A stretch of DNA of 64,000 nucleotides from Puniceicoccales bacterium (GCA_031266345.1 JAISBD010000007.1:4377-68376); one strand, 5' to 3'. Counted from the stretch's first letter, positions 28,936 to 59,103 are shown. Program-made: numbers and translations. The notes: generated by a model not told the origin, from the sequence alone.

Positions 28936-29631
28936 ATGAATAAAGTTACCCAAGATCAAACCAGGGTGGGCAAGACCCATAGCAGCATGGTGTTCACCCT
29001 CGAGGACGCTCGCCAGATAATCCGCCAAAAAGCGGAGCAGGCGGAGCAAGAGGAACAAATCCCTGAAAATAAGGTTGTTGGGATCAAGCTTAGCGTCGCT
29101 GCCCCCGCGAACAATCAGCAATTCCCACAAAAAATTGGCGCCGCTTCCATCGCGGACATACTGGGCTTTAACCCAAATGTCTCCAAGCAAACGGAAACTC
29201 GAGACAGGGACCCATCGGAGGTGCCGGCAAAGTATCGTAAATATTACAAGCTCTTGCTAAAACTGAAGAGCGACTTGAAGCACGGGCTGTCCCGCCTGAC
29301 TAAGGAACACCTATCCTGCGGCGGGGATGCGGACGTGGCAGGCTTTGACTCTGGGTTTGCGCTAAGTCTGATGTCCAGCGAGCAGGAGGCACTAACGGAG
29401 ATAGAACGGGCAATCGAACGCATACACAGGAGCACCTATGGCATATGCGAGCTGACCGGTGTCCCCATCGAAGCGGAACGGTTGGAAGTTGTCCCGTTTA
29501 CGCGGTTTTCAAAGCAGGGGCAGGAGGAACAGGAACGCATCAGGGTGGCAAAGGAGCGCCCGCAGGGCCCATTGTTTGAAGCGGAGCAGTCCGATGATAT
29601 GAGCGAGTTTTCAAACTATGAAGAGGAATAA
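28936..29631 (+). CDS. DksA/TraR-family protein, atypical (long N-terminal extension, zinc-finger cysteines mostly lost)
   Basis: The C-terminal part GGDADVAGFDSGFALSLMSSEQEALTEIERAIERIHRSTYGICELTGVPIEAERLEVVPFTRFSKQGQEE aligns to E. coli DksA (DEADRATQEEEFSLELR...FGYCESCGVEI...RLEARPTADLCIDC). Only the first Cys is kept. It sits between ileS and lspA. Confidence 0.65.
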   Translation: MNKVTQDQTRVGKTHSSMVFTLEDARQIIRQKAEQAEQEEQIPENKVVGIKLSVAAPANNQQFPQKIGAASIADILGFNPNVSKQTETRDRDPSEVPAKYRKYYKLLLKLKSDLKHGLSRLTKEHLSCGGDADVAGFDSGFALSLMSSEQEALTEIERAIERIHRSTYGICELTGVPIEAERLEVVPFTRFSKQGQEEQERIRVAKERPQGPLFEAEQSDDMSEFSNYEEE

Positions 29632-30112
29632 GTTTCGCCAATATTCCCTCTTTTACTGCATTTTGCTGCCCGTGCTAATCGGCGACCAGCTTACAAAGTT
29701 TTTTGCAGACATGTGGCTGGTGGGCCGCACGGTAACCATCTGGCCAAAATACATTTTCCTATCCTATTCGCAGAACAGTGGGGCGGCCTGGAGTCTATTC
29801 CAGGGAAATGCCCTTCTGCTGGGTTTCATCGGCATTTTGGTGCTGGCGATCATGTTCTTCTCCCGCAAGCACTTAAACATAAAACGCTGCCCCAATCAAG
29901 TCGCCTATGGGATGATATGTGCGGGCATCGCGGGAAATGTTATCGATAGGCTGTCATACGGGCACGTCATCGATTTTATCGATATCAGGCTTGGAAATTT
30001 TTGCTGGCCGACGTTCAACATTGCCGATGCAGCAATTTGTTGTGGATTTTTGTGCATTTTTTATTTGCTTTTTTCCGAAAATAGGAGAAAATTAAAGGCC
30101 ATGTTTTATTAG
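29618..30112 (+). CDS. lspA: Lipoprotein signal peptidase (signal peptidase II)
   Basis: 164 aa. DQLTKFF, NSGAAWS, GNVIDRLSYGHVIDFIDI and WPTFNIADAAI. Confidence 0.93.
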   Translation: MKRNKFRQYSLFYCILLPVLIGDQLTKFFADMWLVGRTVTIWPKYIFLSYSQNSGAAWSLFQGNALLLGFIGILVLAIMFFSRKHLNIKRCPNQVAYGMICAGIAGNVIDRLSYGHVIDFIDIRLGNFCWPTFNIADAAICCGFLCIFYLLFSENRRKLKAMFY

Positions 30113-30131
30113 CGCACAGGGTAAGATAGAG

Positions 30132-30902
30132 ATGTCAGAGAACGCAGAGCCACTTATACAGGTAAGGAATTTATCGAAGCATTACGGTGAAGCTGCCGTT
30201 TTAGAGAACATAAGTTTCAACATTGAGAGTGGTGACCTGGTTTCCATAATCGGCCCCTCCGGGTGCGGCAAATCCACACTTCTGCGCTGTTTAAATTGCT
30301 TAGAAATCCTGGATGAGGGCGAAATTTGCATAAACGGCACATTGATTTCGTCGCAATTGGCGCTCGTCGATGATGCCATGTTTTGCCGCCGTGCCCACCA
30401 ATTGCGGCAGAGTATCGGCATGGTTTTTCAATCGTTTAACTTGTTCCCCCATAAAACATTACTCGAGAATATCATGCTCGCCCCGATGGTGGTCAGGAAG
30501 CAATCCCGGGAGCTCTCCCGCAGGCAAGGCATGGAATTATTGGACAAAGTTGGGCTGGCGAATTTTTATAAGCGCCACCCATGGAGCATATCCGGCGGCC
30601 AAAAGCAGCGGGTCGCCATCGCACGCGCCCTCGCCATGAATCCTGTGCTGATGCTCTACGACGAACCAACATCCGCTCTGGATCCGGAGATGGTGGAGGA
30701 GGTTTTGCAGGTGATGCGCAATCTCGATAGGGATGGCATGACGCAGGTGATAGTCTCCCACGAAATGAAGTTTGCCCGCGATGCATCGGACTATATAATA
30801 TACGTGGAAGGGGGGAAAATAGTGGAAATTTCCGATGAGGATGAAATTTTCATCTCTCCGAAGGATGAGCGCACAAAGCGGTTTTTAAAAAGGTATATGT
30901 GA
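30132..30902 (+). CDS. Polar amino-acid ABC transporter ATP-binding protein (GlnQ/ArtP-like)
   Basis: GPSGCGKSTLLRCLN, ISGGQKQRVAIARAL, MLYDEPTSALDPEMV, SHEMKFA. Confidence 0.9.
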   Translation: MSENAEPLIQVRNLSKHYGEAAVLENISFNIESGDLVSIIGPSGCGKSTLLRCLNCLEILDEGEICINGTLISSQLALVDDAMFCRRAHQLRQSIGMVFQSFNLFPHKTLLENIMLAPMVVRKQSRELSRRQGMELLDKVGLANFYKRHPWSISGGQKQRVAIARALAMNPVLMLYDEPTSALDPEMVEEVLQVMRNLDRDGMTQVIVSHEMKFARDASDYIIYVEGGKIVEISDEDEIFISPKDERTKRFLKRYM

Positions 30903-30903
30903 G

Positions 30904-32403
30904 ATGAAAAGATTTCTGTTTTTTATCCTGATACTTTTTGGCAGTAGCACCTATGGCGACGAGCTGCGCTGGGCAGCCGACACGGAGAGCGGTGCGCCCA
31001 GTGTATTTTACGACGGCAATAGCCAGCTCGCCGGCTTCGAAAAGGAGATTATCGAGGAAGTTTGCAAGGAGCTGGATAAGGCACCGATCTTTTACCAAAA
31101 TGACTGGGCTTGGCTGATCCCCGGGCTGGACCACGGCTTATACGACGCCATCGTGGAAGGTCTATTTCGCAGCGAAGAAAACAAGGATGCGGTGCTGTTC
31201 TCCATCCCCTACTACGCTTGCCCACTGTCGCTCCTTGTGCGGGAGGGGGACGAGGAAATAAAATCCCTCGAGCATTGCCGGAAGAAGAAGGTCGGCGTGC
31301 TATGTTGCTCGCGGCCCAGAATCGTGCTAAAAGAGTACGAAGACATAGAAGTTTTCGAATATCCGAATGAGCACGGTGCCTTGTCCGATGTGAAAAATGG
31401 GCGGCTGGATGCGGCTCTGCTGGACTATCCCGCCGCGATGTACTCCACGATAGCGCTCAAGGGGCTTAAAATCGTCAATAATTTCGACAGCGTAGAATAC
31501 CTCATGGCGGTGCGAAAGGGCAACTACGCGCTGATTGGGGAAATTAACGGGGCTTTGCTCAAGCTCATCCAAAATGGAAAAGTTCAAATAATTGTTTCGA
31601 AGTGGGGCCTAACCAACCCGCTATTCGACGCATATATCGCCAAGATGGTGGGTGGCAGTGGAGCGGACGCTCGGGATACCTTCGAGCGGGAGCAATCGAG
31701 CAGCAAGTTTCAAAAGTACGTCAAGTTGCTGCCAATTTTTGCCAAAGCCGCCCTAGTAACCTTAGAAGTATCGATCTGTGGAATGATAGTTGCCGTCGCA
31801 CTTGGTTTGGTACTGGTGCTCGTCAAATTATACTCGCCGCGCTGGATACGATTCATCGTAACGGTGGCGGTGGAGATCATTCGAGGTACGCCACTAATTG
31901 TGCAATTATTTTTCATATTTTACGGTCTGCCATTCGTCGGGATTACGCTGCAACCGCTTGTCGCTGGGATAGTTGCGCTGGGCATTAACTATGCGGCATA
32001 TGAATCCGAAAACTTCCGTGCGGGGTTGGAAGCTGTGCCGAGCGGACAGATGGAAGCGGCCCGCGCACTGGGCATGAGTCAGTGGCAATCACTGCGCTAT
32101 GTTGTTATACCGCAAGCATTTTGCTTCGTATTACCGCCGCTGACCAACGACTTCATCGCCATAATAAAGGAATCTTCACTTGTGTCGCTGATTACCATCG
32201 TCGAATTGACAAAAACTTACACGACCGTGGCGAGTTCATCCTTTGATTTCTTCATCCCCGGGATTATCGTCGCCGTCCTCTACCTCGCACTTGGGCTGCC
32301 CTTCGTGCGCCTAGCAAAGCTAGCGGAAAAGTATCTCGCTCTGGAAAAGAGTGCCTATAGGGCCAAGAGGATCCCAAAGAAGTCCCACATCAATGCTCAA
32401 TGA
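30904..32403 (+). CDS. Fused periplasmic amino-acid-binding domain and ABC permease (HisM/GlnP-type)
   Basis: 499 aa. The N-terminal ~250 aa are SBP family-3-like, after a signal peptide. The C-terminal ~220 aa are a permease with the EAA loop (EAARALGMSQWQSLRYVVIPQA). Confidence 0.85.
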   Translation: MKRFLFFILILFGSSTYGDELRWAADTESGAPSVFYDGNSQLAGFEKEIIEEVCKELDKAPIFYQNDWAWLIPGLDHGLYDAIVEGLFRSEENKDAVLFSIPYYACPLSLLVREGDEEIKSLEHCRKKKVGVLCCSRPRIVLKEYEDIEVFEYPNEHGALSDVKNGRLDAALLDYPAAMYSTIALKGLKIVNNFDSVEYLMAVRKGNYALIGEINGALLKLIQNGKVQIIVSKWGLTNPLFDAYIAKMVGGSGADARDTFEREQSSSKFQKYVKLLPIFAKAALVTLEVSICGMIVAVALGLVLVLVKLYSPRWIRFIVTVAVEIIRGTPLIVQLFFIFYGLPFVGITLQPLVAGIVALGINYAAYESENFRAGLEAVPSGQMEAARALGMSQWQSLRYVVIPQAFCFVLPPLTNDFIAIIKESSLVSLITIVELTKTYTTVASSSFDFFIPGIIVAVLYLALGLPFVRLAKLAEKYLALEKSAYRAKRIPKKSHINAQ

Positions 32404-34006
32404 TGCGCATCGCCTCATCCACCGATGTGAGGCCGCTTTTAATTTTCATCAAAGCGTCACTTTTCAATGTCAGCACGCCATTTTCAGCGGCAATGGTGCG
32501 GATTTCCGCCTCCGATTTTCGAGTGGCGATGGCTTCGCGCAGAGCATCGCTAGCGTCGAGGATTTCGAAGATTCCCACCCTGCCGTAGTATCCCAAACCG
32601 TCGCAGTGGTCGCATCCCTGTGCACCGAAGGCATCGGCCAAGTCGGCACCAAAAATTTGCTCCGCTTCTCGGCGAGATATTGTTTGGGGATCCATCTTTT
32701 TGGCGCAGTGGGGGCACAGTTTCCTAACCAACCTCTGCGCAACAATGAGCCTAATTGCCGAGGATAGCAAAAATTCTTCCACGCCGATATCCCACAGTCT
32801 CGTGATGGCCCCGATGGAATCATTTGTGTGCAGCGTGCTCAACACGAGGTGGCCGGTGATGGACGCCCTAATCGCGATCTCGGCGGTTTCGCGGTCACGT
32901 ATCTCGCCGACCATGATGATGTCCGGGTCTTGCCGCAGGATGGAGCGCAGTACGCTAGCAAAAGTCAGGCCGATCTCCGGGTTTACCTGCGTTTGGTTGA
33001 CCTCCTGGATATCGTATTCTATGGGGTCTTCGACCGTCATCAGGCGCCGATTCGGCGTGCGCAGCGCCCGCAGGCATGCGCTGAGCGTGGTAGATTTTCC
33101 AGAGCCCGTCGGGCCGGTCACGAGGATGATTCCGTGCGGCCGCTTAAGTGCCCCCCTAAGCAGCCCGCTGCGCGCCTGGTCAAGGCCGAGATCATCCAAT
33201 TCGACCGGGCTATTATTGTTGGCGAGTATGCGCAAACTAACGCTTTCTCCGTAGGTTGTCGGCAAGGTCGATGCCCTAATATCGAGGGTTCCCCGGGGCA
33301 TTTTAAATAGGATTTTTCCATCCTGGGGGTGATGTTTTTCGGAAATGTTCATCCGTGCCATGATCTTTAGGCGTGAAATGATGGCCGCTTGAAAATTTTT
33401 CAGATTTTCCGGCACGCGGGCAACAACCAAATCCCCATCGACGCGGTACCTAATGATGAGGCTAGCCCTTTGCGGCTCGAAGTGCACGTCGGTCGCCCGT
33501 GCTCCGATGCACCGCCGCAGGAGATCATTGACAAATTTTATCACGGCGGCATCCTCATTTTCCATATCCTCCCGCTTCTGGACATCATCGGGACCCTGCG
33601 CCGCAACACCGGACAGACCAAAGCTCTCGGCAATAAATTTGCCAATGGCATCCGGGTAGGTGAGGGAGCATTCGATGCCGTACCCCGTGGTAGCGGTGAT
33701 CCAGCGCACCTGGCTATTCGCCAATGGCCAGCAAACAACAGCGGAAATCATATCCCCACCGGCGCCGATCGGTAAAAATTTATATTCCGTCACCAGCTGA
33801 TAGGGTATTTTGCTTAAAATTTCGCCGTCAACGGTGAATTTTTTTATAATCTTCAGCCCACTCATCTCCGCCAAAGTGTGCAGAGCTGAATCTTCGCTGC
33901 GATCCAAAAACTTCGCCAATTCACCCAGGCGCAAAGCGGGGTCGGCGGATAAAATTTGTGCCGCCTCCCTGCCGAATTTTGAGTAGAAAATCGAATCTTC
34001 CATCAC
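32390..34006 (-). CDS. gspE: Type II secretion ATPase GspE
   Basis: 538 aa. Walker A GPTGSGKSTTL, Asp/His boxes (VGEIRDRETAEIAIRASITGHLVLSTLHTND) and the tetracysteine CPHC...CDHCDG motif typical of GspE. The start is GTG 34006 or ATG 34003. Confidence 0.92.
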   Translation of the reverse strand: MMEDSIFYSKFGREAAQILSADPALRLGELAKFLDRSEDSALHTLAEMSGLKIIKKFTVDGEILSKIPYQLVTEYKFLPIGAGGDMISAVVCWPLANSQVRWITATTGYGIECSLTYPDAIGKFIAESFGLSGVAAQGPDDVQKREDMENEDAAVIKFVNDLLRRCIGARATDVHFEPQRASLIIRYRVDGDLVVARVPENLKNFQAAIISRLKIMARMNISEKHHPQDGKILFKMPRGTLDIRASTLPTTYGESVSLRILANNNSPVELDDLGLDQARSGLLRGALKRPHGIILVTGPTGSGKSTTLSACLRALRTPNRRLMTVEDPIEYDIQEVNQTQVNPEIGLTFASVLRSILRQDPDIIMVGEIRDRETAEIAIRASITGHLVLSTLHTNDSIGAITRLWDIGVEEFLLSSAIRLIVAQRLVRKLCPHCAKKMDPQTISRREAEQIFGADLADAFGAQGCDHCDGLGYYGRVGIFEILDASDALREAIATRKSEAEIRTIAAENGVLTLKSDALMKIKSGLTSVDEAMRIIEH

Positions 34007-34452
34007 TTACTATCGTTGCGAACAATTTCAAAAAATTTCCTGCGCGCCTCCTCGGAGACGGGCATAGCGGTGCTATTCCCATGCGCCAACCGCACGGAAT
34101 TCGCCCTAGGTTCGGCCTGATTCAGCCTAATGCTCAACTTCGAACCGTCTGACCGGCACAGCTCGATAGTTTGCCGGGTTTTATCGTATCTTTTCACGGA
34201 GATGCCGGCCACCGTTTCTCCAAGTTTGAGCCAGCACCTCCCGTTGGAAGTTTTGTTGAGGATGCTAAACATGCACTCGTCGCCCAACAGGCAGACCCCG
34301 TGAAGCTCGAATTCATCGCTTACATTCGGTTGTTTTTCAACGACTTCAGCGCATTTTGTACAAAATGGCGAGCGTTCGCAGAGCGATGGATACCCACCGT
34401 AAGCGCCGCGAAAACAAAGCAATACTAGGAATATTGGTGCGAAAACTTTCAT
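34003..34452 (-). CDS. Secreted GspC-HR/PilP-like small protein (putative secretin-interacting T2SS component)
   Basis: 149 aa with signal peptide MKVFAPIFLVLLCFRGAYG. The core FELHGVCLLGDECMFSILNKTSNGRCWLKLGETVAGISVKRYDKTRQTIELCRSDGSKLSIRL has the G-x-A-x-I...Gd.v.G..V..I....V.L....g pattern of GspC HR/PilP domains. Wedged between gspD and gspE with overlapping stop/start. Confidence 0.5.
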   Translation of the reverse strand: MKVFAPIFLVLLCFRGAYGGYPSLCERSPFCTKCAEVVEKQPNVSDEFELHGVCLLGDECMFSILNKTSNGRCWLKLGETVAGISVKRYDKTRQTIELCRSDGSKLSIRLNQAEPRANSVRLAHGNSTAMPVSEEARRKFFEIVRNDSK

Positions 34453-34455
34453 CTT

Positions 34456-36264
34456 TCACCTCATTGGTTTTCTTTTTTTTAATTTTTGTTTTACCGGAAC
34501 GACTGACTCGCCGCCGCCATTGCCGATTGTAAACTTTCCATCGGAGCAGTAGGCATCGAGTTCACAGTTCAGCGCACTATTTTCTGCGGCTTTCCTGGCG
34601 TACTCCCCCTCCACGGACGGATTCGCCACAATGGATGGGCGAATAAAAATTAGCAGTTCATTTGTTCTTTCGCTGCGGGCTTTTGGGGAAAATAGAGCAT
34701 CGCCGACGATGGGCAAGTGGCCCAGGAGCCACAATTTCCCCTTCGAATCGGTGCACTCTTTCTCCTGTAAGCCGGCCAAAACAACGACATCCCCATCGTG
34801 CACGCTCACGAAGGATACGGCTTGCCGCTTCGTTATCACCGGCTGCTTGTTTTTATCGATCTCCACGCTGTCACTAATTTTTTGTATGAGCTGGTCAATT
34901 TTCATTTGAATTACGCCATTGGGGCCGATCAGCGGGATGACAGTCAGCTCTATGCCGATGTCCTTGTAGCTAACGCTATTCCTAATCGACTGCTGATTGG
35001 CCAGATCGGTAAAATTTGCCGTTATCACGGGGCGGGATTCGCCGACTTTTATTGAAGCTTCGCGGTTATGGGTCGTGACGATCGTTGGGGCCGATAAAAC
35101 TTTTACATTTTCGCAATTCTTCGCCCTATTGAACACGTAGCCTAGGGAAAAATTTTTCAGCGTCCCCCCAAAAATGAGCCCACTTTTGATGCTACTGTTT
35201 GAAGCACTCTGGCCGATGAAAGCTAGGCGGTGACTGCCGGTGGGACTGGGGGTCTGGGAGGGGGCCGCCGACATGTCCACATTGTAGGATATTCCCAGCG
35301 ATTCCAGCCCAGAAGTCTCGTTATCGGCGAGGGTTACCTGGGCGATGACAACCTCGATGCGCACCTGCTCGAGCAGGATGTCGAGCCCGTCGATAATTTT
35401 TTCGACGTGGTTTATGTCCTGCCGCGTCCCGCAAACGATTATGGAGTTGCTATATTTATCGTGCTCCACGGCGACGGAGCTGGAAAACTTAAATTCCTGC
35501 GAGTCTGGTTTGGCGTCGCTTTGGGAAGCTGCATTCGGCGGTGTAATTTTGCTTTGGTCACCCCCTTCGCTGCGCACCCTATCTTCAATTTTCCCCACTC
35601 CGAGGGGCCCACTCGCAGGGACCAATCGGTGAAGAATGGCCGAAATATTCTCCGCACTGCCATGTTTTATGCGAAAAATCTTCGATTCAATCTTCGAGCA
35701 GCGCGGCCTGTCCACGTTTTTAATCAGCAGCTCCACGCGTTGCAAATTCGACAGCCTATCCGTGATTACTAAGCAGTTTGAATCCTCAAAAATTAGGATT
35801 GAGGAGCTGATCGGTGACAATATGGGGCGGATAATCCTGGCAAAATCTCCGGCGGAAATGTATTCCAGGGTAAATAATTTCGCATAAAATTTTTCACCGA
35901 CTGGCAGGGACAGAGCCGATACTTCCAGCCATTCCGGCGCATGCGTGGCCGCCATGCGCGCGCTCACGGCTCGCAAAATTCCATCTCCGCGGTCGATAAC
36001 CGCAACCCCATTCATGCTTAGGACGTTCTCCAATATCCGAGCGGCATCCCGCTGTGACAAATTTTGCCGAATTTGCATGGATAGTTTGGTGTTTGCGACG
36101 GATTGGTCGCATAAAACGGACTTGCTGGTCAACTTTTCCAAAATACACAGCACTTGGGGCAGCGATTCATCGGAGAATATCAAACTTTTTACCTCGCAGC
36201 AAATCAACGAACCGTAGAAACAATTCGCCGCAAGGAATACAAAAATATATTTCAACGTACCCAT
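34456..36264 (-). CDS. gspD: Type II secretion outer-membrane secretin GspD
   Basis: 602 aa. N-domain repeats, then the secretin core ...VVVLAGLQEKECTDSKGKLWLLGHLPIVGDALFSPKARSERTNELLIFIRPSIV. Confidence 0.9.
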   Translation of the reverse strand: MGTLKYIFVFLAANCFYGSLICCEVKSLIFSDESLPQVLCILEKLTSKSVLCDQSVANTKLSMQIRQNLSQRDAARILENVLSMNGVAVIDRGDGILRAVSARMAATHAPEWLEVSALSLPVGEKFYAKLFTLEYISAGDFARIIRPILSPISSSILIFEDSNCLVITDRLSNLQRVELLIKNVDRPRCSKIESKIFRIKHGSAENISAILHRLVPASGPLGVGKIEDRVRSEGGDQSKITPPNAASQSDAKPDSQEFKFSSSVAVEHDKYSNSIIVCGTRQDINHVEKIIDGLDILLEQVRIEVVIAQVTLADNETSGLESLGISYNVDMSAAPSQTPSPTGSHRLAFIGQSASNSSIKSGLIFGGTLKNFSLGYVFNRAKNCENVKVLSAPTIVTTHNREASIKVGESRPVITANFTDLANQQSIRNSVSYKDIGIELTVIPLIGPNGVIQMKIDQLIQKISDSVEIDKNKQPVITKRQAVSFVSVHDGDVVVLAGLQEKECTDSKGKLWLLGHLPIVGDALFSPKARSERTNELLIFIRPSIVANPSVEGEYARKAAENSALNCELDAYCSDGKFTIGNGGGESVVPVKQKLKKRKPMR

Positions 36265-36977
36265 CTTTCACCCAAAAATACCGCCTCAATTAGACATTTT
36301 ACATTCAAATTACCATCCTTTGCGGCGGTGAAGTGGACATCGCCCATCCTGGTGCCGTCGCAGGTAATGGCCTCGCTGAAATGCACAAACTCTGCCATGG
36401 AAACACTGCGCAGGGCGGCGTTCACCGATGCAATGGTAATTTCATTGACCCCATACCTGCGCTCGTCCGACAATTCAAATTTGCACCCACTTTCGGCGGC
36501 AACCTTTTCGATAAAGCTCATCAGGGAACTTCCCAAATTCCTATTACTTTTCAAGCGCTCGTGGGCATCGTCAAATTTCCGACTAATCTCATCCGCACCT
36601 TCGAGCCACTCACTTTGCTTGGCAGCTAAATCATTGTAGCAGGATATCGTCCTGCGCATTTTCAAAAAATTAGCACAGCTACATACTAGGCAAAGCAAAG
36701 TGAGGGAGAACAATCCAGCAAAGATAAAAAATTTGCAGCGCAAATGCACCAGTTTTAGCCACTCGGTGCAGCATCGGCGTTCGGCGATAAACCCAGTGCC
36801 CTTCTTTTTTACAAGTGATGGGAGCAATGAGGGCTGAGTCGGCCCCCACCCCCTTACTTTTAGCCACTTTAATAAATGCCTAATCCTATCTCTGCTTAAG
36901 TGGAACATGAATGGTAAAAAAAGCCCTATTGTCGCGGAAATGAACATTGGATGTTTCCGCTGAAGTAACGTTCGCAC
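36252..36977 (-). CDS. Bitopic inner-membrane protein, GspM-like (putative). True start probably internal.
   Basis: One TM (FFIFAGLFSLTLLCLVCSCANF) followed by a ~150-aa periplasmic domain. The ORF-track start overlaps the upstream gene by 92 nt. In-frame GTG at 36749 or TTG at 36743, just before the TM, would give a ~165-aa GspM-sized protein. Assignment is by size, topology and position only. Confidence 0.4.
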   Translation of the reverse strand: MRTLLQRKHPMFISATIGLFLPFMFHLSRDRIRHLLKWLKVRGWGPTQPSLLPSLVKKKGTGFIAERRCCTEWLKLVHLRCKFFIFAGLFSLTLLCLVCSCANFLKMRRTISCYNDLAAKQSEWLEGADEISRKFDDAHERLKSNRNLGSSLMSFIEKVAAESGCKFELSDERRYGVNEITIASVNAALRSVSMAEFVHFSEAITCDGTRMGDVHFTAAKDGNLNVKCLIEAVFLGERWVR

Positions 36978-37824
36978 AACTCCTTACGGCGCTGCGATAA
37001 TTTTCCACCGAACCAACGGACTGCCCGTATCCCTTGATCTTCAGGGTTTTTTTATCGACGTCGCAGTGAACATCGGTGAATAAAATATCGTCTGGGCGGA
37101 CCCTATTCAGCGTTTCCAATGAAGTTAAACAAAAATTTTCCTGGGAGTAAAATTTGGATATGTGCTCGAGGAAAGCGTGCTTCGAAATAATGCGCGCAAC
37201 TTCAGCCTCTCGCCCGTCGAGCAACATTTTAAACCTTCCAAACTTCAGGTGGGTGCAAAAAAATATTCCCCAAGCTAGCAACAATAACCCTATTCCTATT
37301 AGGCAAAAGCGAATCCCGTGGTCTAAAAATTTCGAAAATTTTCTCAAAAATTTTGCGTGACTTTTTTGCTTAAATTCCTTTAAGTTGGCATTGAAAACTA
37401 TGGGACTCAGCGCATCGAGGCAAAAATATCCCTCGGGACAATGGAAAACTATGCTATCATCCCGATTCACCCTTGCGCGCACCATCGATAGATCGTGCCC
37501 CACCACCATGCTGGGGAAAAAATCAGGAAAAATGTAGCTATCTTCCGTTGAAAAAAATTGCTCAATTCTGCGCTTGTAGGCGATGAATATGGTCACTTTG
37601 GGTCCAGCGGCGAAAAATCCGTAGGAGACATCGGCGAGCGAAAATGGGCTAACCGCTTCCACGCGAAGTCTAGCAAAGTGCTCCAAATCGCGATTTGACT
37701 TGAGCGGCTTTTCAAAGGAAACTTCATCGATAAAAAAGTATTCCCGCCCTACAAAACGTACTTTACCACGTTTGCGATAGTGACGTTTTAGGGTGCAAAA
37801 TGATTTTCTAAAAAAATAGCTCAC
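36886..37824 (-). CDS. Bitopic inner-membrane protein, GspL/PilN-like (putative)
   Basis: 312 aa. A ~170-aa cytoplasmic part, one TM (IRFCLIGIGLLLLAWGIFFCTHL) and a ~115-aa periplasmic part. Located between the GspK-like and GspM-like genes. Assignment is by topology and position. Confidence 0.4.
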   Translation of the reverse strand: MSYFFRKSFCTLKRHYRKRGKVRFVGREYFFIDEVSFEKPLKSNRDLEHFARLRVEAVSPFSLADVSYGFFAAGPKVTIFIAYKRRIEQFFSTEDSYIFPDFFPSMVVGHDLSMVRARVNRDDSIVFHCPEGYFCLDALSPIVFNANLKEFKQKSHAKFLRKFSKFLDHGIRFCLIGIGLLLLAWGIFFCTHLKFGRFKMLLDGREAEVARIISKHAFLEHISKFYSQENFCLTSLETLNRVRPDDILFTDVHCDVDKKTLKIKGYGQSVGSVENYRSAVRSCANVTSAETSNVHFRDNRAFFTIHVPLKQR

Positions 37825-37873
37825 GGCTGCGTTCCTATTAAATCGATAATTTCACAAAAGTCAATCAAGTATT

Positions 37874-38746
37874 TCAAAACTTGCTTGCCTGAGAAACAAC
37901 CTCGAAGGGAAACCCGTGCCAACTGCGAAGGGGGTCGTATTTTACGGTGTAATTTTCCGCCAGTTTTATGCCATCCATTTCAGTGGCGATGGACAAACTA
38001 AAGCAGAGGTTTTTCTCCATGAAAAGTCCAGGATTGTGAACAATGCAGCCCCTGGAATAGAGCTCAGTGAAAACATCATTCCGTGAATTTTCACTTAAAA
38101 ATGAAGTATTTTTGAGCACCGCTTTTGCGTCATCGGGGCGCCAGCTCTCCAGTGCACAAATTGCATTTAGCAGCTCATCGCCGATCCCATGCAGCGCCAC
38201 GGCATCCGCATTTTGGCAAGTAATATTTTTTGCAAAAACCTGCCATTTTTCCGTAAAAAAACCATTCCCATCGATAAACACACGGCTAAACGTCGGCAAG
38301 GTGAGCAGGTGCTCAATTTTCGCCGGTCCCAACTTCTTCGCCCTGAACAGTTCTTCCAGTTCGCCAATCAACGATATAACATCTTGATAATCAAGCCATA
38401 ATGCAAAAAACAACTGTTCGAGCAAGTTTAAAAATTCAGGTTTTAGGGGAATTTTATTATCCTCCGGTGCAATGAAGAAGTGGTTGCCTTCCCCCAAATT
38501 ATCCCCAATGCATCGCTCAATTTTTTCCCTGCATTCCTCCATGCTGCAGTCTTTTGTCAAATGGGAATAGAGGTTAGCAATTACAATTGACAAAACCGAA
38601 TCCCTCCTTATGCGCAAGTCAAGATATGGATCGATTTGCCCAATGTAGGAAATTTCGTTGTCAACAACGCGTAAGAAAGAGACCGCCAGCATGCCCATGA
38701 CCAGCACCACTCCCAACACAAGTACCAAAATACTTCCCTTGCGCAT
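37874..38746 (-). CDS. GspK-like minor pseudopilin (putative)
   Basis: MRKGSILVLVLGVVLVMGMLAVSFLRVV has the R-G-S-x-L-(hydrophobic)n GspK/PilX-type N-terminus without the G/F-x-x-x-E prepilin motif. ~290 aa, as for GspK. I prefer the ATG at 38746 to the ORF-track start at 38782. Confidence 0.5.
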   Translation of the reverse strand: MRKGSILVLVLGVVLVMGMLAVSFLRVVDNEISYIGQIDPYLDLRIRRDSVLSIVIANLYSHLTKDCSMEECREKIERCIGDNLGEGNHFFIAPEDNKIPLKPEFLNLLEQLFFALWLDYQDVISLIGELEELFRAKKLGPAKIEHLLTLPTFSRVFIDGNGFFTEKWQVFAKNITCQNADAVALHGIGDELLNAICALESWRPDDAKAVLKNTSFLSENSRNDVFTELYSRGCIVHNPGLFMEKNLCFSLSIATEMDGIKLAENYTVKYDPLRSWHGFPFEVVSQASKF

Positions 38747-38790
38747 GGACATGCAGTTTGGCAGGACAGGCGATAAATGCAATAAATTCC

Positions 38791-39582
38791 ATGAAAAATA
38801 GATTCACGTCAAGGTGCTGTGGGTTTACTCTCCTGGAAGTTTTGGTGGCACTATCCCTCATCGCTTCCATCTCCGCTCTATCTTTTTACTTCTTCATCAG
38901 CATAAGTGAGCGCCATAAGCTTTCCCTCGAGAACACAGCGATTGACCGAGAATTGCACATGCTAACGGACATCATTTCCGAAGACCTATCCTGCATCATT
39001 CTCATAGATAAGGGATTCCCCGCCTTTGAATTTAAATCCGACGATGAGCAGCAAAAGTTTTTTATCTCATTTTTTTCCTCGAATAATGAGGAGCACATAA
39101 CGAAAGCTTTTCAATATTGCATCGGAACAACCGATAACTCGCGCAAAATTTTCACAAAACTCGAACTATCTGCCGCAGATTCCCTTTTTATGCAGAACAC
39201 AATGAATCAGCAAAGCTCGCTCCATAAAAATTTTTTGGAATATGCACCGGTTATGGTGAGAGCATTGGGTGGAAAATTGCTGAATTTCAGCATAAGGATC
39301 GCTGTGAAAACACCAACCGGCGGTATTTTCATATCACCGACAAACACCGATTTGACTTACAAAAACGGCTGCTTGCACTACAAAAACAAAGAAAAGGGAA
39401 CGGTAATGCACATAAAGGGCACGCCGCTATTCATAGACATCACCGTGCGAGCCCTCACCAATGCAACCGAGCAAAAACTATCCTCGAAACAATTTAAATC
39501 AAAGCGCGACCGTGCCATATTCCTAGCCGCAGAAATGCGAAAGAGTTGCCGAAGAATAGCGATCAGGTCCCACTCCTTCTAA
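38791..39582 (+). CDS. Pseudopilin with prepilin-type N-terminal cleavage/methylation motif (GspH/J-like)
   Basis: MKNRFTSRCCG/FTLLEVLVALSLIASISALSFYFF is the classical G-F-T-L-x-E prepilin peptidase site. 263 aa. Divergent from the GspK-like gene (44-nt spacer). Confidence 0.75.
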   Translation: MKNRFTSRCCGFTLLEVLVALSLIASISALSFYFFISISERHKLSLENTAIDRELHMLTDIISEDLSCIILIDKGFPAFEFKSDDEQQKFFISFFSSNNEEHITKAFQYCIGTTDNSRKIFTKLELSAADSLFMQNTMNQQSSLHKNFLEYAPVMVRALGGKLLNFSIRIAVKTPTGGIFISPTNTDLTYKNGCLHYKNKEKGTVMHIKGTPLFIDITVRALTNATEQKLSSKQFKSKRDRAIFLAAEMRKSCRRIAIRSHSF

Positions 39583-39836: not shown

Positions 39837-41012
39837 CTACCTAAACTTGGCAAGAATTTGAATGCCGGAGTCATAGGCTGGGTGCGTTTCGCCGATGATC
39901 AGCGGTGAAGCGTACTTGAAAAATGAAGTATCAGCGATCGTTTCGTCGCCGTTGTACCACCCAAGGGGAAATTCCTTTTTTTTTCCGATTGCATTCGAAA
40001 TGTCCACGCAGCTTATTTCACAGTTATATTTTTGGATATCGGTACGCAGCAGAATCATCATTTTGCTGCTGGTTACATTTTCAAGCGCAAGCTCAACGGC
40101 CCGCCTAGCGCAGTTCACCGTTTCGGAGGAATCTGCACCGGATATCGTCATGCAGGATGTCCGCCGCCAATCGTGCAAAATCACCAAATCAACATCCACT
40201 TCAAAGTTAGCCTCCGCTATAAATTTTACATGCTGGCCGGGTGTGCGCCCTTTGGTCACGCTTTCTCCGGCACGATTCTTCAAATCGCCACCGACAACAA
40301 TCACGCAATTGCCATTCGCATGTATGCATTCGTGAATTTTTTTCACAAGCGTTTGTTCCTCAAATAAATCCGCAAATATCAAGTGCGGCGCCATGTTGGA
40401 GTCGAACCGCTTCTTTGCCAGCGCAACACCGCACAAAACCCACATATTGTCGCATCCGCTAAACTCCACAATGGTCACACTCCCAGAGGACTGCGTCGAT
40501 TGAATGTCGGCAACAATGCCGGTGAACAGCGACGAAACATGCTTTATTAAAGAACCGTAACCGAGGCAGTGGTCGGTCAGGGGCAGGGCGTTGTCGGGTG
40601 AAAATGGAATCAGCATGAGGCGCATTTCGTGGCCAATCCTAGCCACAGATTCCTCTATCTTTAGGCAATATTTTCCACTCTCTTCGTCGCCAAGTATGAA
40701 CATAAACCTAATGTTTTTGTCCCTCAAAATTACCCCCACATTGCTGAAATCTTCTTCGGAGCACTCGCTAACACGGGAACCCAATGCCGCCCCGGGAGTA
40801 AAAGATAGATTGCTGATATTTTTCTGCTGCTGAGCGGCAAGGTCTATAAAATTTCCGGCAATCAGCCCCGCAAGCCCACCGATGCAGCCATAAACATCCT
40901 CAACGGCATCGTAATTCAATGCGCTCCCTATCAGTGCCGATAAGCCAACATTCATTAGTGCGGACGGCCGTCCAAGTTGCATCAATAAGACATTTCCGTT
41001 CAATTTCATCAT
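39837..41012 (-). CDS. Phosphofructokinase-family protein with degenerate catalytic motifs (probable pseudoenzyme or altered function)
   Basis: 391 aa, collinear with PfkA. GRPSALMN for GGDAPGMN, ILGDEES for IGGDGS, IPFSPDNAL for LPGTIDNDI, VEFSGCDNMW for VEVMGRYCG. Confidence 0.65.
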   Translation of the reverse strand: MMKLNGNVLLMQLGRPSALMNVGLSALIGSALNYDAVEDVYGCIGGLAGLIAGNFIDLAAQQQKNISNLSFTPGAALGSRVSECSEEDFSNVGVILRDKNIRFMFILGDEESGKYCLKIEESVARIGHEMRLMLIPFSPDNALPLTDHCLGYGSLIKHVSSLFTGIVADIQSTQSSGSVTIVEFSGCDNMWVLCGVALAKKRFDSNMAPHLIFADLFEEQTLVKKIHECIHANGNCVIVVGGDLKNRAGESVTKGRTPGQHVKFIAEANFEVDVDLVILHDWRRTSCMTISGADSSETVNCARRAVELALENVTSSKMMILLRTDIQKYNCEISCVDISNAIGKKKEFPLGWYNGDETIADTSFFKYASPLIIGETHPAYDSGIQILAKFR

Positions 41013-41164: not shown

Positions 41165-42262
41165 ATGAAAAAAATTATCAACATAATGATGATGGCCATT
41201 GTTTTGGCGTGCACGGGATGCAGTTCCATTGGTCCGAAGGGGATGCGGAGTGTTCACCCACAGTACAATGACGCATTGACTTCTGTCTTGGATCGGCAAT
41301 TGTTGAATAACTTGGTTCGGTTAAAATACCGTGAAAATCCGCTATTTTTAGAAATTAACAGCATAACAGAGTCGCGCACAAGGGGCCTCGACGGTGGTTT
41401 GGGGAATGGCAAGTGGTTTTTACACCAGAGCGCTTCCCAGTCGACGCTCGTTCCAACGTTCAAATTCCTGGACTCGCAAACACCGACGATTTCCTATCAT
41501 CCGCTACGCGGCAAGGAATTTATTCAACATTTGATGACTCCAATACCATTTTCCGCCGTGCTATTGATGTCGCAATCGGGGTGGAAGTTGGAGCGCGTCT
41601 TTGACCTCTGCATTGAAAAAATAAATGGCGTCGACAACGCTTCCAACGCTTCCGGTCCAACGCCAAGAATCAAGCCGGATTACGAAAAATTTTATCGCAT
41701 GACTTCACTTTTGCAAAAACTGGAGTACGAGCACAAACTGGCGCTCGGCCTTGACAGCGCAAATAAATCCTTAGTTTTGCGCTTTATAAATGTATCTAAT
41801 TCTCCGGATATGAAGGAATTGCGGAAAATTTTAGACCTCGAAGAGGGCAGGGATGAATTCTACTTTCAAGATAATTTTTTATCCGTATCCAAGCAAAGCT
41901 TAAGCGTGAGGATGCGGTCGCTCATGGGCCTATTGTTTTACCTGTCGCACACCGTCGAGGTACCACAGGAGGACATCGACAGCGGGAAAGTGATGACGAC
42001 AGTCGATGGCGATGGTAAAGTTTTTGACTGGACAAAAAATGCAAGCGGTAAGATGTTGAACATCAAGTGCTCGAAAGTGTTGCCGAAGAATGCCTTCATA
42101 GCAACTTATCACCGCGGCCATTGGTTCTATATCGCCGATGAAGACCTGCATTCAAAGTCAACGTTCATGTTCGTCTCCTACCTTTTTAACTTGCAAGCAG
42201 GCGAAGCTTCCGCTCGCTCGGTAGCCCCGCTGTTGACAATTCCCACCACTTCAGCAAAGTAG
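41165..42262 (+). CDS. Hypothetical lipoprotein
   Basis: 365 aa. Signal peptide with lipobox MKKIINIMMMAIVLAC/TGC (LACTGC). No family recognised. Confidence 0.6.
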   Translation: MKKIINIMMMAIVLACTGCSSIGPKGMRSVHPQYNDALTSVLDRQLLNNLVRLKYRENPLFLEINSITESRTRGLDGGLGNGKWFLHQSASQSTLVPTFKFLDSQTPTISYHPLRGKEFIQHLMTPIPFSAVLLMSQSGWKLERVFDLCIEKINGVDNASNASGPTPRIKPDYEKFYRMTSLLQKLEYEHKLALGLDSANKSLVLRFINVSNSPDMKELRKILDLEEGRDEFYFQDNFLSVSKQSLSVRMRSLMGLLFYLSHTVEVPQEDIDSGKVMTTVDGDGKVFDWTKNASGKMLNIKCSKVLPKNAFIATYHRGHWFYIADEDLHSKSTFMFVSYLFNLQAGEASARSVAPLLTIPTTSAK

Positions 42263-46428: not shown

Positions 46429-47751
46429 CTACCATTTTTGGTGGCGATAAAACTTGGAATATTTCGTTTGTGATTTTGAGATTACCGGTACCCGCTTAGC
46501 GCTTGGCACCTGCTTAGCGTCGGGTGTCTGCTTAGCGCCGGGTGTCTGCTTAGCGTCGGGTGTCTGCTGAGCATCTTGCCTAAACATCTTCTCAAACCAT
46601 CCTTGCTTAGCATCTTTTTGTGGAACTGGCGCTTCCTCACTTTTTGAGGTTGCCGGCACCTGCTTAGCGTCTGGCGCCTGTTTAGCGTCTGGTGTCTGCT
46701 TAGCGTCTGGTGTCTGCTGAGTATTTTTGCTAAACAGCCTCCCAAACCATCCTTGCCCAGCATCTTTTTGTGGAACTGGCACTTTCTCACTTTTTGAGGT
46801 TTCCGGTACCTGCTTAGCGTCTGGTGTCTGCTTAGCGTCTGGCGTCTGCTTGGTATTTTTGCTAAACGGCCACTTAAACCATCCTTTCCCAGCACTTGCT
46901 TTTGATTTAGGTGAACTTGGACCCTTAGCAGATGAGTCTTTGGATGAACTTTTAGCAGTGGAAGCAGGTTTTATTCCAAAGTATATGGCAACAGGTAAGG
47001 CGATAGCAATGGCAGCGGTCAAAATATACTTTATTACTTTCCTCCTATTCCATGGCTGAGCTCCGCCGGATGGCTGAGTTTCGTCGGATGGCCGGGTTTC
47101 GTCGGATGGCCGAGTTTCGTCGGCTGGCCGAGTTTCGTCGGATGGCCGAGCTCCGCCGGATGGCTGAGTTTCGTCGGATGGCCGAGTTTCGTCGGACGGC
47201 TGAGTTTCGTCGGATGGCCGAGTTTCGTCGGCTGGCCGGGTTTCGTCGGACGGCTGAGTTTCGTCGGATGGCCGAGTTTCATCGGATGGCCGAGTTTCGT
47301 CGGCTGGCCGAGCTTCGTCGGCTGACCGGGCTTCACCCCCAAACTGGGGTACGCTAAATGGCCGGGCTTCACCCCAAAACTGGGATACGCTAAATGGCCG
47401 GGCTCCACCCCCAAACTGAGTTTCGCCAAATGGCCGGGCTCCACTCCTAAACTGAGTTTCGCCAAATGGCTGGGCTCCACTCCTAAACTGAGTTTCGCCC
47501 TGCGACTTAGGATTAGCTCTGCCCTGCGACTTAGGATTAGCTCTGCCCGATGGCTTGAGCTTAGCTCTGCCCGATGACTTGGCCTCCGGCAACCGAACAC
47601 TCAATTGAGTCGACGCCACACGCTTTGAGGTTCCCGGTTCTTTAATAGCTGCCGACTTTTTAGGTCTCACTTGAGGAGATCGAACAGGGCTGCTGTTTTG
47701 AGAGTCATACATTTTACCACTTCTTGTTATTATTGAAGATCCAGTTTCCAT
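46429..47751 (-). CDS. Hypothetical single-pass membrane repeat protein with nested tandem repeats and three GWFxxxF[SR][KQ] motifs
   Basis: 440 aa. N-terminal GETQFRSGA[QR]PF-type repeats, ~15 E[TA][RQ]P[SA]D hexapeptides, a TM (VIKYILTAAIAIALPVAIYFGI), then GKGWFKWPFSKNTKQ / GQGWFGRLFSKNTQQ / KQGWFEKMFRQDAQQ. Each motif is flanked by (QTPDAK)n. Confidence 0.6.
   Translation of the reverse strand: METGSSIITRSGKMYDSQNSSPVRSPQVRPKKSAAIKEPGTSKRVASTQLSVRLPEAKSSGRAKLKPSGRANPKSQGRANPKSQGETQFRSGAQPFGETQFRSGARPFGETQFGGGARPFSVSQFWGEARPFSVPQFGGEARSADEARPADETRPSDETRPSDETQPSDETRPADETRPSDETQPSDETRPSDETQPSGGARPSDETRPADETRPSDETRPSDETQPSGGAQPWNRRKVIKYILTAAIAIALPVAIYFGIKPASTAKSSSKDSSAKGPSSPKSKASAGKGWFKWPFSKNTKQTPDAKQTPDAKQVPETSKSEKVPVPQKDAGQGWFGRLFSKNTQQTPDAKQTPDAKQAPDAKQVPATSKSEEAPVPQKDAKQGWFEKMFRQDAQQTPDAKQTPGAKQTPDAKQVPSAKRVPVISKSQTKYSKFYRHQKW
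47054..47330 (-). repeat. 18-bp tandem repeat (~15 units) encoding the ETRPSD hexapeptide
   Basis: The plus strand reads ggc[ct]gagtttcgtcgg[ac]t reiterated head-to-tail. It generates spurious ORFs in several frames (47034..47600 -, 47052..47357 +). Confidence 0.9.
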
Positions 47752-57882: not shown

Positions 57883-59103
57883 ATGAAATTTAGATATAAG
57901 GGTTTAAATTCGGGTGGATTGGTTGTGCGCGGTGAAATGGAAGCCGACTCTCGCAAGGGTGCGATGCAGACATTGGCGAACGGTGGCATAGCCGTTTTAT
58001 TACTGCGTGAAGTATCTACCGATGCGCCATTTAAGTTAAATATTTTCAAACGCGACGACCGCGTGAAGTTTTCTGATATTGAAATGGGTCATTTTCTAAG
58101 AAAATTGGCCGATTTGTGCTGCGGTGGATTGCTCCTCGCCGATGCCCTCGAGTCGCTATGCAGCAACACATCCTCTGGCAAAGAGCGAACCCTAAGCGAG
58201 CGCATTTTGGCTCACTTAAGGGACGGGAATAGTTTTGCGCAGGCGCTTAAGAAATGCTGCAACTTTTTCGAGGATAGCACGTTAAGCATATTGGAGTTAG
58301 GTGATTTAACGGGCAAGCTTTCCCAGGCGCTGTGCAATGTGGTGAATCTGTTGCAGCGAAAAATTGAGACCAAAAAGCGCTTCATTGCGGCTTTAAGCTA
58401 TCCATTTTTTATCTGCTGCGTGGCATTTGTCGTAATTTTACTTTTCCTATTTTATTTGATGCCGCGGATGGAGTCGATGCTGCGAGGTTTTGGTGGCCAA
58501 TTGCCACCGTCAGCGCATATTTTGATGAATTTTTCGCGATTTTTGGCGCACTATTTCCCAATTTTGCTGCTACTAGCTGCGATTGCGGCCACGTTGGTTC
58601 GCTACTTCTATCGCTTTGATAAGTACCGGCTGATTTTTGATAGAATTCTCCTTCAATTACCCGTTTGGGGCCGCCTAAATGCGCTATTTACCCGTGCCCG
58701 CCTTTCCAATACGCTGGCGAGCTTAATGGCTGGGGGCGTGGCAACTTCAGAGGCGATCGGCATGGCGGTCGATTCGATTTCCAATGCTTTTTTCAAAAAA
58801 AATTACATCAAAGCGTGCGACGCTATCTTGGATGGGGCGACACTCGCTTCGGCCTTTAGGATGCACAAAATTTTTGACGGTTCCGCGGCGGATATTATCG
58901 CAGTCGGGGAAAAAACTGGAGGCATAGCCGCGCAACTCTTCTCCCTTGCGGCAATGTACGATGAGCAATTGAACAATTTTTTGAGAAAATTAATCGCCGC
59001 CATCTCTTCGGCAGCACTATTGTTTGCCTTTGCAATCGTCGCAATTTTGGCCCTGAGCCTTGTTTCAACCGTTTTAAATTTCAGCGCGAAGCTGGCGCAT
59101 TAG
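57883..59103 (+). CDS. gspF: Type II secretion inner-membrane platform protein GspF
   Basis: MKFRYKGLNSGGLVVRGEMEADSRKGAMQTLANGGIAVL is the typical GspF/PilC start. Two T2SF repeats with 3 TM helices. The ATG at 57847 adds 12 residues. Confidence 0.88.
   Translation: MKFRYKGLNSGGLVVRGEMEADSRKGAMQTLANGGIAVLLLREVSTDAPFKLNIFKRDDRVKFSDIEMGHFLRKLADLCCGGLLLADALESLCSNTSSGKERTLSERILAHLRDGNSFAQALKKCCNFFEDSTLSILELGDLTGKLSQALCNVVNLLQRKIETKKRFIAALSYPFFICCVAFVVILLFLFYLMPRMESMLRGFGGQLPPSAHILMNFSRFLAHYFPILLLLAAIAATLVRYFYRFDKYRLIFDRILLQLPVWGRLNALFTRARLSNTLASLMAGGVATSEAIGMAVDSISNAFFKKNYIKACDAILDGATLASAFRMHKIFDGSAADIIAVGEKTGGIAAQLFSLAAMYDEQLNNFLRKLIAAISSAALLFAFAIVAILALSLVSTVLNFSAKLAH

Follow-up and report, generated by a model that had tools for sequence, protein, structure and literature searches.

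A cluster of genes at 32390-39582 of a 64,000-nucleotide (nt) stretch of DNA from a Puniceicoccales bacterium (GCA_031266345.1 JAISBD010000007.1:4377-68376), which as a whole is called the window throughout, very probably encodes the core of a type II secretion system (T2SS) of the Puniceicoccales (Verrucomicrobiota) in a reduced and fast-evolving form. Judging from gene content, folds and orthology, three proteins of the cluster, here called K-like, L-like and M-like, would be GspK, GspL and GspM, a small secreted protein of 149 amino acids (aa), here called X, would take the place of GspC, and the gene arrangement would be derived from an operon of the order gspG-H-I-J-K-L-M-D-X-E-F. A first-pass annotation of the window had described the locus as a non-canonical, reduced or remodelled T2SS with undescribed accessory components, and all of the open reading frames (ORFs) on which that description was built are present, as follows:

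gspE, 32390..34006, minus strand: secretion ATPase of 538 aa; its N-terminal domain is of MshEN/N1E type, and it has a tetracysteine motif
X, 34003..34452, minus strand: secreted protein of 149 aa; behind a signal-like N-terminus it has an SL.ERSPF motif and a beta-rich core, and it ends in a basic helix
gspD, 34456..36264, minus strand: outer-membrane secretin of 602 aa that bears a signal peptide as well as the domains N0, Secretin_N and Secretin
gspM-like, 36252..36908, minus strand: bitopic inner-membrane protein of ~218-241 aa; the longest ORF extends up to 36977
gspL-like, 36886..37824, minus strand: protein of 312 aa with a short cytoplasmic domain (~165 aa), one transmembrane segment and a periplasmic ferredoxin-like domain
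gspK-like, 37874..38746, minus strand: protein of 290 aa (302 aa if the start is at 38782) with an N-terminal hydrophobic helix and no Glu5
pseudopilin, 38791..39582, plus strand: divergent protein of 263 aa with a G/FTLLE prepilin site; the longest ORF starts from 38758
gspF, 57883..59103 (or from 57847), plus strand: polytopic inner-membrane platform protein, 24 kb away from the cluster

The six minus-strand genes (K-like, L-like, M-like, gspD, X and gspE) are packed in 32390-38746, with gaps of at most 49 nt or overlaps between neighbours: the last codons of the M-like gene overlap the start of gspD, 3 nt separate gspD from X, and the reading frames of X and gspE share 4 nt (ATGA). Because of this packing, they look like one translationally coupled operon. 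The topologies expected of T2SS proteins are evident, as had been noted, namely an N-terminal hydrophobic helix in K-like, one transmembrane segment each in L-like and M-like, and a signal-like N-terminus in X. Only gspD, gspE and gspF are recognizable by sequence; of the four smaller minus-strand proteins, none is matched significantly in Pfam or NCBIfam, apart from a weak PilN match in the 312-aa protein. The start assigned to the M-like gene at 36977 should probably be revised, a downstream start at 36947 or 36908 being likelier because the corresponding proteins of relatives have 138-201 aa. The perfect prepilin site (GFTLLE) of the divergent 263-aa protein and its spacing from the K-like gene were seen as described, with 44 nt between the pseudopilin ATG at 38791 and the K-like ATG at 38746. 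This intergenic region (38747-38790) has 21-48 nt in relatives (L008, L014, and L017), and at 44 nt both promoters must overlap coding sequence; a promoter and terminator scan gave chance-level results only, and the sigma-70 consensus at the divergent region was not above chance.

The evidence that carries our reading comes from distant contigs, which were reached by locating the encoding sites of X-family members. Contig L016 (69% GC) encodes GspG (TIGR01710, 98.5 bits, above the cutoff), three H/I/J-like pseudopilins and GspK (NF037980, E 4.4e-30), after which come a protein of 447 aa, GspM, GspD, a member of the X family, and GspE. In contig L021 (58% GC), G is followed by three small genes, K (T2SSK_1st), genes of 432 and 189 aa, and those for the secretin, X, E, and F, while L019 carries those for the secretin, X, E, and F. 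The L021 secretin (L021 6750-10004) has 1084 aa, nearly twice the 602 aa of that in the window, with large extra periplasmic or N-terminal regions. Profile hidden Markov models (HMMs) of the K, L, M, and X families of the window lineage matched the positional counterparts in these two canonical-order contigs with the following scores:

K family: 21.2 bits in L016, 26.5 bits in L021
L family: 42.9 bits in L016, 23.9 bits in L021
M family: 36.6 bits in L016, 32.4 bits in L021
X family: 65.6 bits in L016, 49.7 bits in L021

Only positional counterparts were matched, all other pairs having E>0.1 with the sole, marginal exception of the X family and an unrelated 137-aa L021 protein (E 0.022, 3.9 bits). 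In the reverse direction, phmmer with the single L, M, and X proteins of L016 matched only the L-like, M-like, and X proteins among 809 window ORFs. Because the family HMMs match the positional counterparts in canonical-order operons, K-like, L-like, and M-like are, as judged by these profiles, divergent orthologues of GspK, GspL, and GspM. Against Pfam and NCBIfam, the K, M, and X proteins of four genomes produced no match when searched one by one, and hhalign against single E. coli Gsp, Hof, and Ygh proteins was mostly uninformative.

By the same comparison, the ancestral layout of the clade is gspG-H-I-J-K-L-M-D-X-E(-F). In the Puniceicoccales lineage, G-H-I have apparently been lost or relocated, a single pseudopilin has stayed but in inverted orientation, gspF has been relocated, and the cytoplasmic domain of GspL has become ~130 aa shorter. 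A reduced or remodelled T2SS, as first proposed, is therefore what the distant relatives point to, the window retaining an inverted J-like gene, K-L-M-D-X-E, and a displaced F. As to the label "PVC-type" that was first attached to it, the sampling comprises Puniceicoccales, one named Opitutales member of the X family, and metagenomic contigs. The gene order is less exotic than had been claimed, in that K-L-M is canonical and D-X-E after M is apparently usual in the wider clade, while the placing of D and E and the distant F do differ from the canonical order.

The K-like protein, whose N-terminus is MRKGSILVLVLG, showed no direct sequence match to Pfam T2SSK or NCBIfam NF037980, and its family consensus reached E 0.032; the link to GspK is by the family HMM (21.2-26.5 bits) to the K proteins of L016 and L021. 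An AlphaFold2 model built on a 6-sequence alignment had a predicted local distance difference test score (pLDDT) of 65 and a predicted template modelling score of 0.48, with an N-terminal helix, a helical insert, and a C-terminal sheet. The sole significant Foldseek matches of this model in the PDB were XcpX (9a1f_T, 5.9e-6; 5vtm_X, 1.1e-3) and GspK of enterotoxigenic E. coli (3ci0_K, 3.9e-3), with alignments spanning 291-325 columns each, while the next match had E 0.75. The template modelling scores (TM-scores) of 0.35-0.42 are low because about one third of the model is poorly predicted. Within the model, the match list is clearly specific to GspK/XcpX, in agreement with the GspK-type role that had been suggested, and the pilin-like fold, large inserted alpha-domain, and hydrophobic helix without Glu5 that characterize GspK are seen at moderate confidence.

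The divergent 263-aa pseudopilin matched Pfam N_methyl (6e-6), and its N-terminal 60 aa are GspJ-like: TIGR01711 gspJ matched residues 22-83 (E 4.6e-5), phmmer with E. coli GspJ gave 2.3e-6, the best among G, H, I, and J, and hhalign reached 93.6% to GspJ over 60 columns. Judging from these alignments, the protein is most like GspJ in its N-terminal 60 aa, the rest being globular.

The L-like protein has its transmembrane segment at ~166-197, followed by a periplasmic ferredoxin-like domain, as is characteristic of GspL. The single protein matched Pfam PilN weakly (E 0.007), and PilN was found on the C-terminal region in 7 of the 8 family members (best E 1.8e-5). In the AlphaFold2 model (mean pLDDT 63), the C-terminal alpha-beta-beta-alpha-beta-beta domain was predicted with a pLDDT of 75-87, and its top Foldseek matches in the PDB were periplasmic XcpY (5n7l), EpsL, and PulL, ranked ahead of PilN, PilO, and Amuc_1100. 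The match to XcpY 5n7l had E 6.8e-4, a target-normalized TM-score of 0.83, and a root mean square deviation of 1.6 Å. The assigned L role is thus borne out by a periplasmic domain of GspL/PilN fold together with Pfam PilN. The cytoplasmic domain of GspL is actin-like, has ~240 aa, and binds the N1 domain of GspE. No relation between the L and M families was detectable by hhalign, and a metagenome contig scan with the L-like alignment found nothing.

The M-like protein has one transmembrane segment and is encoded after the L-like gene, fitting the topology and position of GspM. Its family HMM matched the M-position proteins of L016 and L021 one-to-one, and that of L016 matches NCBIfam GspM_XpsM (NF040576, E 1.4e-6) and Pfam T2SSM (0.0047), which upholds the M role claimed for it. 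Direct hhalign to E. coli GspM was unstable (P 2.3e-4 to 0.1; 44% with 4 sequences, about 1% or less with deeper alignments) and was not relied on, and tblastn of E. coli GspM against plasmids gave E. coli matches only. The cytoplasmic N-terminus of the M-like protein (window 36780-36900) carries a 35-aa insertion, about VRGWGPTQPSLLPSLVKKKGTGFIAERRCCTEW, which is missing in the 8 homologues aligned and present in the near-identical contig L001; its origin by DNA duplication was not supported.

In X, a signal-like N-terminus is followed directly by S-L-x-E-R-S-P-F, ~20 variable residues, a beta-rich core with the pattern F-E-L-x-G-V ... F-S-I ... W ... G-E ... G ... V ... Y-D ... G ... L-x-L, and, at the C-terminus, a basic helix. 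Read by eye, the signal peptide of the family consensus is of Sec type, its end is rich in Ala, and a conserved Cys is lacking, while some close relatives have LCAC, a possible lipobox. An exhaustive profile search found 373 representative clusters (50% identity) of the family at E<=1e-3. Its members are labelled hypothetical in their sources, one being from an Opitutales metagenome-assembled genome (MAG); no Pfam family was found in 97 members, and X of the window itself matched neither Pfam nor NCBIfam. Three multi-repeat proteins from this search were scanned with Pfam, of which the ankyrin and FctA ones were judged spurious and the third had unrelated domains.

Out of ~43,000 models, GspC was the top NCBIfam and the sole Pfam match of the X consensus. 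NCBIfam GspC_delta (NF041515) was matched by the consensus (1.9e-4), by 3 of the 97 members (1.3e-4), and by X of L016 (0.006), at 16-21 bits against a cutoff of 150 and with the central part only of the 311-position model aligned to X proteins of 130-270 aa; TIGR01713 gspC was reached by the consensus at E 0.094, and Pfam T2SSC weakly (E 0.2), over that part of the model which covers HR. With 17 E. coli proteins as references, hhalign ranked YghF (17%, P 0.0014) and HofP (7%, P 0.005) first for the X family, YghF being the GspC (GspC-beta) of the second T2SS of E. coli and HofP the E. coli PilP. HofP is laid out as a signal peptide, RDPFKPP, and a beta domain, and hhalign pairs the RSPF motif of X with this motif. 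GspC's HR domain and PilP are structural homologues, and both bind the N0 domain of the secretin (PMC3169554). An X-family gene lies between gspD and gspE in 3 of the 5 distant contexts sampled (L016, L019, and L021). X has neither a transmembrane anchor nor a PDZ domain and is therefore not a canonical GspC; on the similarities just described, it is likely a connector of the PilP/GspC-HR type that replaces GspC. The C/PilP-like role put forward for it in the first-pass annotation thus gains support from weak but consistent signals, while the description of the accessory components as undescribed applies to this family only, K-like, L-like, and M-like being divergent members of known families.

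It is rather unlikely that, in a T2SS otherwise correctly identified, X is instead a pilotin-like factor in secretin assembly, a chaperone of the periplasm, or a substrate that is co-transcribed. Small secreted proteins beside secretins can be pilotins, as is E. coli YghG, and the weakness of all homology signals to GspC and PilP, the absence of an anchor, of a PDZ domain, and of an evident conserved lipobox Cys in the family consensus, and the occurrence of X copies away from T2SS genes would all suit such a protein. However, hhalign of the wide X family to the pilotin YghG reached 2% only, while GspC heads the matches in both Pfam and NCBIfam, the layout of RSPF plus beta domain matches that of HofP, and no other candidate for GspC was seen in the G-to-F operons of L016 and L021. 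Taking X as a connector, we consider it possible, although short of probable, that it represents a distinct class of secretin-to-platform connector, secreted, unanchored, and PilP-like, which replaces the membrane-anchored GspC across the T2SS clade with the gspG-H-I-J-K-L-M-D-X-E-F layout, the Puniceicoccales machine running with a tip cut down to a minimum, one GspK-like pseudopilin plus an enlarged GspJ-like one. If X does replace GspC across the clade, standard T2SS models that require gspC would miss or misclassify such systems.

The T2SS core set of a GspD-type secretin, a GspE ATPase, and a GspF platform protein is present in the window. GspE matched Pfam T2SSE (E 6.6e-128) and MshEN (E 1.4e-4), and GspD matched Pfam Secretin (4e-36), Secretin_N (1.6e-16), and N0 (2.1e-6). 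GspF scored 212 bits (E 1.3e-62; cutoff 424) with TIGR02120 GspF and matched E. coli GspF in phmmer (4e-28); the neighbours of its gene, encoding an LtaS-like sulfatase and DXP synthase, are unrelated. The ATPase scored nearly equally with TIGR02533 gspE (505 bits; cutoff 630) and with PilB (481 bits), both below their own cutoffs, which raises the alternative of a type IV pilus or a competence-type filament for adhesion, motility, or DNA uptake, in which L, M, and X would be the equivalents of PilN, PilO, and PilP. The L-like family is matched by Pfam PilN and not by GspL, X is closer to the layout of PilP/HofP than to the transmembrane-HR-PDZ layout of GspC, and no GspG is encoded in the window, all of which speaks for such a filament. 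We nevertheless regard this alternative as quite improbable. The secretin scored 286 bits with TIGR02517 gspD (cutoff 351) vs 151 bits with PilQ, the K-like fold matches only the T2SS-specific GspK/XcpX, and structurally the L-like domain is closest to GspL proteins, with PilN behind them. As in GspL, the PilN-like part is joined to a sizeable cytoplasmic domain, a separate PilM is lacking (a HofM query matched nothing in the window), and no PilT-like or second T2SSE-family ATPase occurs in the cluster or among the window ORFs scanned. In addition, a GspG-type major pseudopilin is encoded in the same operon of L016 and L021, that of L016 being above the NCBIfam cutoff.

In a word-indexed protein search, the 312-aa L-like protein was matched identically by a hypothetical protein from a Puniceicoccales (Verrucomicrobiota) MAG, only seven other relatives were retrieved, all from Puniceicoccales MAGs or Joint Genome Institute metagenomes, and the K-like and 149-aa proteins were similarly restricted. 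Three Puniceicoccales MAG contigs in GTDB (L002-L004) have all seven genes, their order and orientation unchanged, with the following identities to the window:

E: ~78%
D: 72-75%
Pseudopilin: 63-68%
K: 57-61%
L: 50-56%
X: 53-55%
M: 39-51%

The same seven-gene cluster was found in L008-L011, L014, and L017/L018, at least eight related contigs being syntenic overall, with the four small genes conserved together with gspD and gspE. In L014 and L017, whose loci have 45% and 32% GC, identity to the window falls to 26-33% for L, M, and X. The flanks are also kept where the contig is long enough, namely the fused gene for a substrate-binding protein and permease, glnQ, lspA, a dksA-like gene, and ileS. 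Because the genes are intact and in fixed order across 26-78% identity, purifying selection, and not decay, is indicated. A decaying, non-functional remnant in a host-associated, fast-evolving genome, with the missing G/H/I/O and the displaced gspF as signs of erosion, is most improbable. The identities of 39-61% for the accessory proteins among close MAGs vs 72-78% for D and E, the shortened L cytoplasmic domain, the odd insertion in the M-like protein, and the lack of a major pseudopilin or peptidase in the window would fit erosion, but the seven genes are intact, with order, overlaps, and motifs kept in at least eight contigs of 32-45% GC, unlike pseudogenes, and the reduced layout, being common to the whole lineage, has been stable for a long time.

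Several observations weigh against a reduced T2SS with X in the place of GspC. The gspD, gspE, and gspF models, although best-scoring, all gave scores under the NCBIfam equivalog cutoffs. The AlphaFold2 models of the K-like and L-like proteins are of moderate confidence only (pLDDT 63-65), and the L-like cytoplasmic domain (~165 aa, pLDDT ~60) gave no Foldseek fold match and is ~130 aa shorter than that of the L016 protein. All signals that link X to GspC/PilP are statistically weak (best E 1.3e-4-1.9e-4, far under cutoffs), though consistent, and a PDB profile search with the X family found nothing; those with the L, M, K, and pseudopilin families, with shallow or enriched alignments, gave nothing significant either. 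X-family genes are orphans in 2 of the 5 distant contexts (L012 1724-2389 and L020 2442-3119), with no T2SS gene in the 8-10 kb read, which would mean either that the gsp genes are scattered in those genomes or that the family has a second role. Finally, GspG, GspH, GspI, and prepilin peptidase are absent from the 64 kb window, as the first-pass annotation had stated for the major pseudopilin and the peptidase: a six-frame motif scan found one prepilin signal only, and phmmer with E. coli and L016 pseudopilins, GspO, and PppA detected none of them.

By analogy with known machines, the contacts between these proteins, the secretion activity, and the substrates of the Puniceicoccales T2SS may be pictured as follows. 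The hexameric ATPase GspE would dock both on the GspL-like protein, at its cytoplasmic domain, and on GspF, and power the assembly of a short pseudopilus. The assembly platform would be made up of the GspL-like and GspM-like proteins, paired by way of their periplasmic ferredoxin-like domains, and the pseudopilus, its tip capped by the GspK-like and GspJ-like minor pseudopilins, would drive folded periplasmic proteins out via the GspD secretin. In GspC's place, X would bind the N0 domain of GspD through its beta domain and, as PilP does in the machines of type IV pili, would make contact with the L/M platform through its N-terminal R-S-P-F motif and/or its basic C-terminal helix. Genes for GspG as the major pseudopilin, for the prepilin peptidase, and for any GspH/I must presumably lie in other parts of the genome.

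The surroundings of the cluster in the window are of some interest in themselves. At 29618-32403 lie lspA, a glnQ-type ABC ATPase gene, and the fused substrate-binding/permease gene, which are convergent with gspE (~14 nt overlap), and this block is kept with the T2SS cluster in close relatives and in L014 and L017. At 39837-41012 (minus strand), a 391-aa protein of the phosphofructokinase family is encoded (Pfam PFK, E 9.5e-21, on residues 8-277), its C-terminal third being unmatched. A giant orphan ORF of 2791 aa with no Pfam match at E<=1e-5 occupies 13854-22229 (plus strand), ~10 kb off the T2SS cluster; it is conceivable that it encodes a secreted or surface protein. Further ORFs without a significant Pfam match are found at 49341-52127 (minus, 928 aa), 9008-10756 (minus, 582 aa), 11950-13365 (plus, 471 aa), 46429-47751 (minus, 440 aa), 2145-3239 (plus, 364 aa), and 41165-42262 (plus, 365 aa), and the share of orphan proteins is unusually high for one window. 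A FliR/SctT-type export apparatus protein is encoded at 921-1709 (minus strand; Pfam Bac_export_1, E 1.1e-52), and flagellar or type III export genes are therefore to be expected at or beyond the left edge of the window.

The architecture of T2SSs is known almost entirely from Proteobacteria, and in bacteria of the Planctomycetes-Verrucomicrobia-Chlamydiae (PVC) superphylum their accessory proteins are usually annotated as hypothetical. A literature search for the T2SS of Puniceicoccales or Verrucomicrobia found nothing specific. What is new here is a sequence bridge from unrecognizable K, L, and M proteins, annotated as hypothetical, to canonical GspK, GspL, and GspM, the recurrent operon layout G-H-I-J-K-L-M-D-X-E-F, and the large unnamed X family, a candidate GspC substitute without a Pfam or NCBIfam model. 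A profile of the X family would improve the detection of T2SSs in Verrucomicrobiota, and X offers a natural test of how much of GspC, that is, its anchor and PDZ domain, a working T2SS needs. The gain is incremental, because the machine itself is probably an ordinary T2SS in a divergent, reduced form, with X, the probable GspC replacement, as the only new element. Published T2SS detection models hold gspC mandatory, and the chlamydial T2SS was classed as "generic," with minor pilins and GspLM apparently missing (Denise et al.; PMC6668835); for both reasons, T2SSs without gspC are likely under-called.

Compared with the canonical proteobacterial T2SS (Gsp/Eps/Xcp/Pul, e.g., the gspC-O operon of E. 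coli), the Puniceicoccales locus shares GspD, GspE, GspF, pseudopilins of GspK fold and GspJ-like type, bitopic proteins of GspL and GspM type, and the K-L-M order. It differs in that a small secreted X after gspD is found and no GspC with a transmembrane segment, HR, and PDZ, D and E follow M and are not ahead of F-G, gspF is far off, J is inverted, G, H, I, and O are absent from the window, the cytoplasmic domain of L is shorter than in L016, and all components are below the curated family cutoffs. With the type IVa pilus PilM-N-O-P-Q proteins (HofMNOPQ in E. coli), it shares an L-like periplasmic domain that matches Pfam PilN and, in X, the signal peptide, R-[DS]-P-F motif, and beta domain of PilP/HofP, encoded next to the secretin gene. 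Unlike in the pilus system, however, there is no separate PilM, X is encoded after and not before the secretin gene, the secretin is of GspD type, the K-like protein has a GspK fold, and relatives have GspG. The deltaproteobacterial GspC (NF041515, GspC_delta) provides the best-scoring curated model for the X family, while X is far below its cutoff, shorter, and aligned to its central part only. The chlamydial T2SS, likened here by its published description, is also a system of the PVC superphylum whose accessory proteins are missed by standard models, while at the Puniceicoccales locus the equivalents of GspK, GspL, and GspM are demonstrably present.

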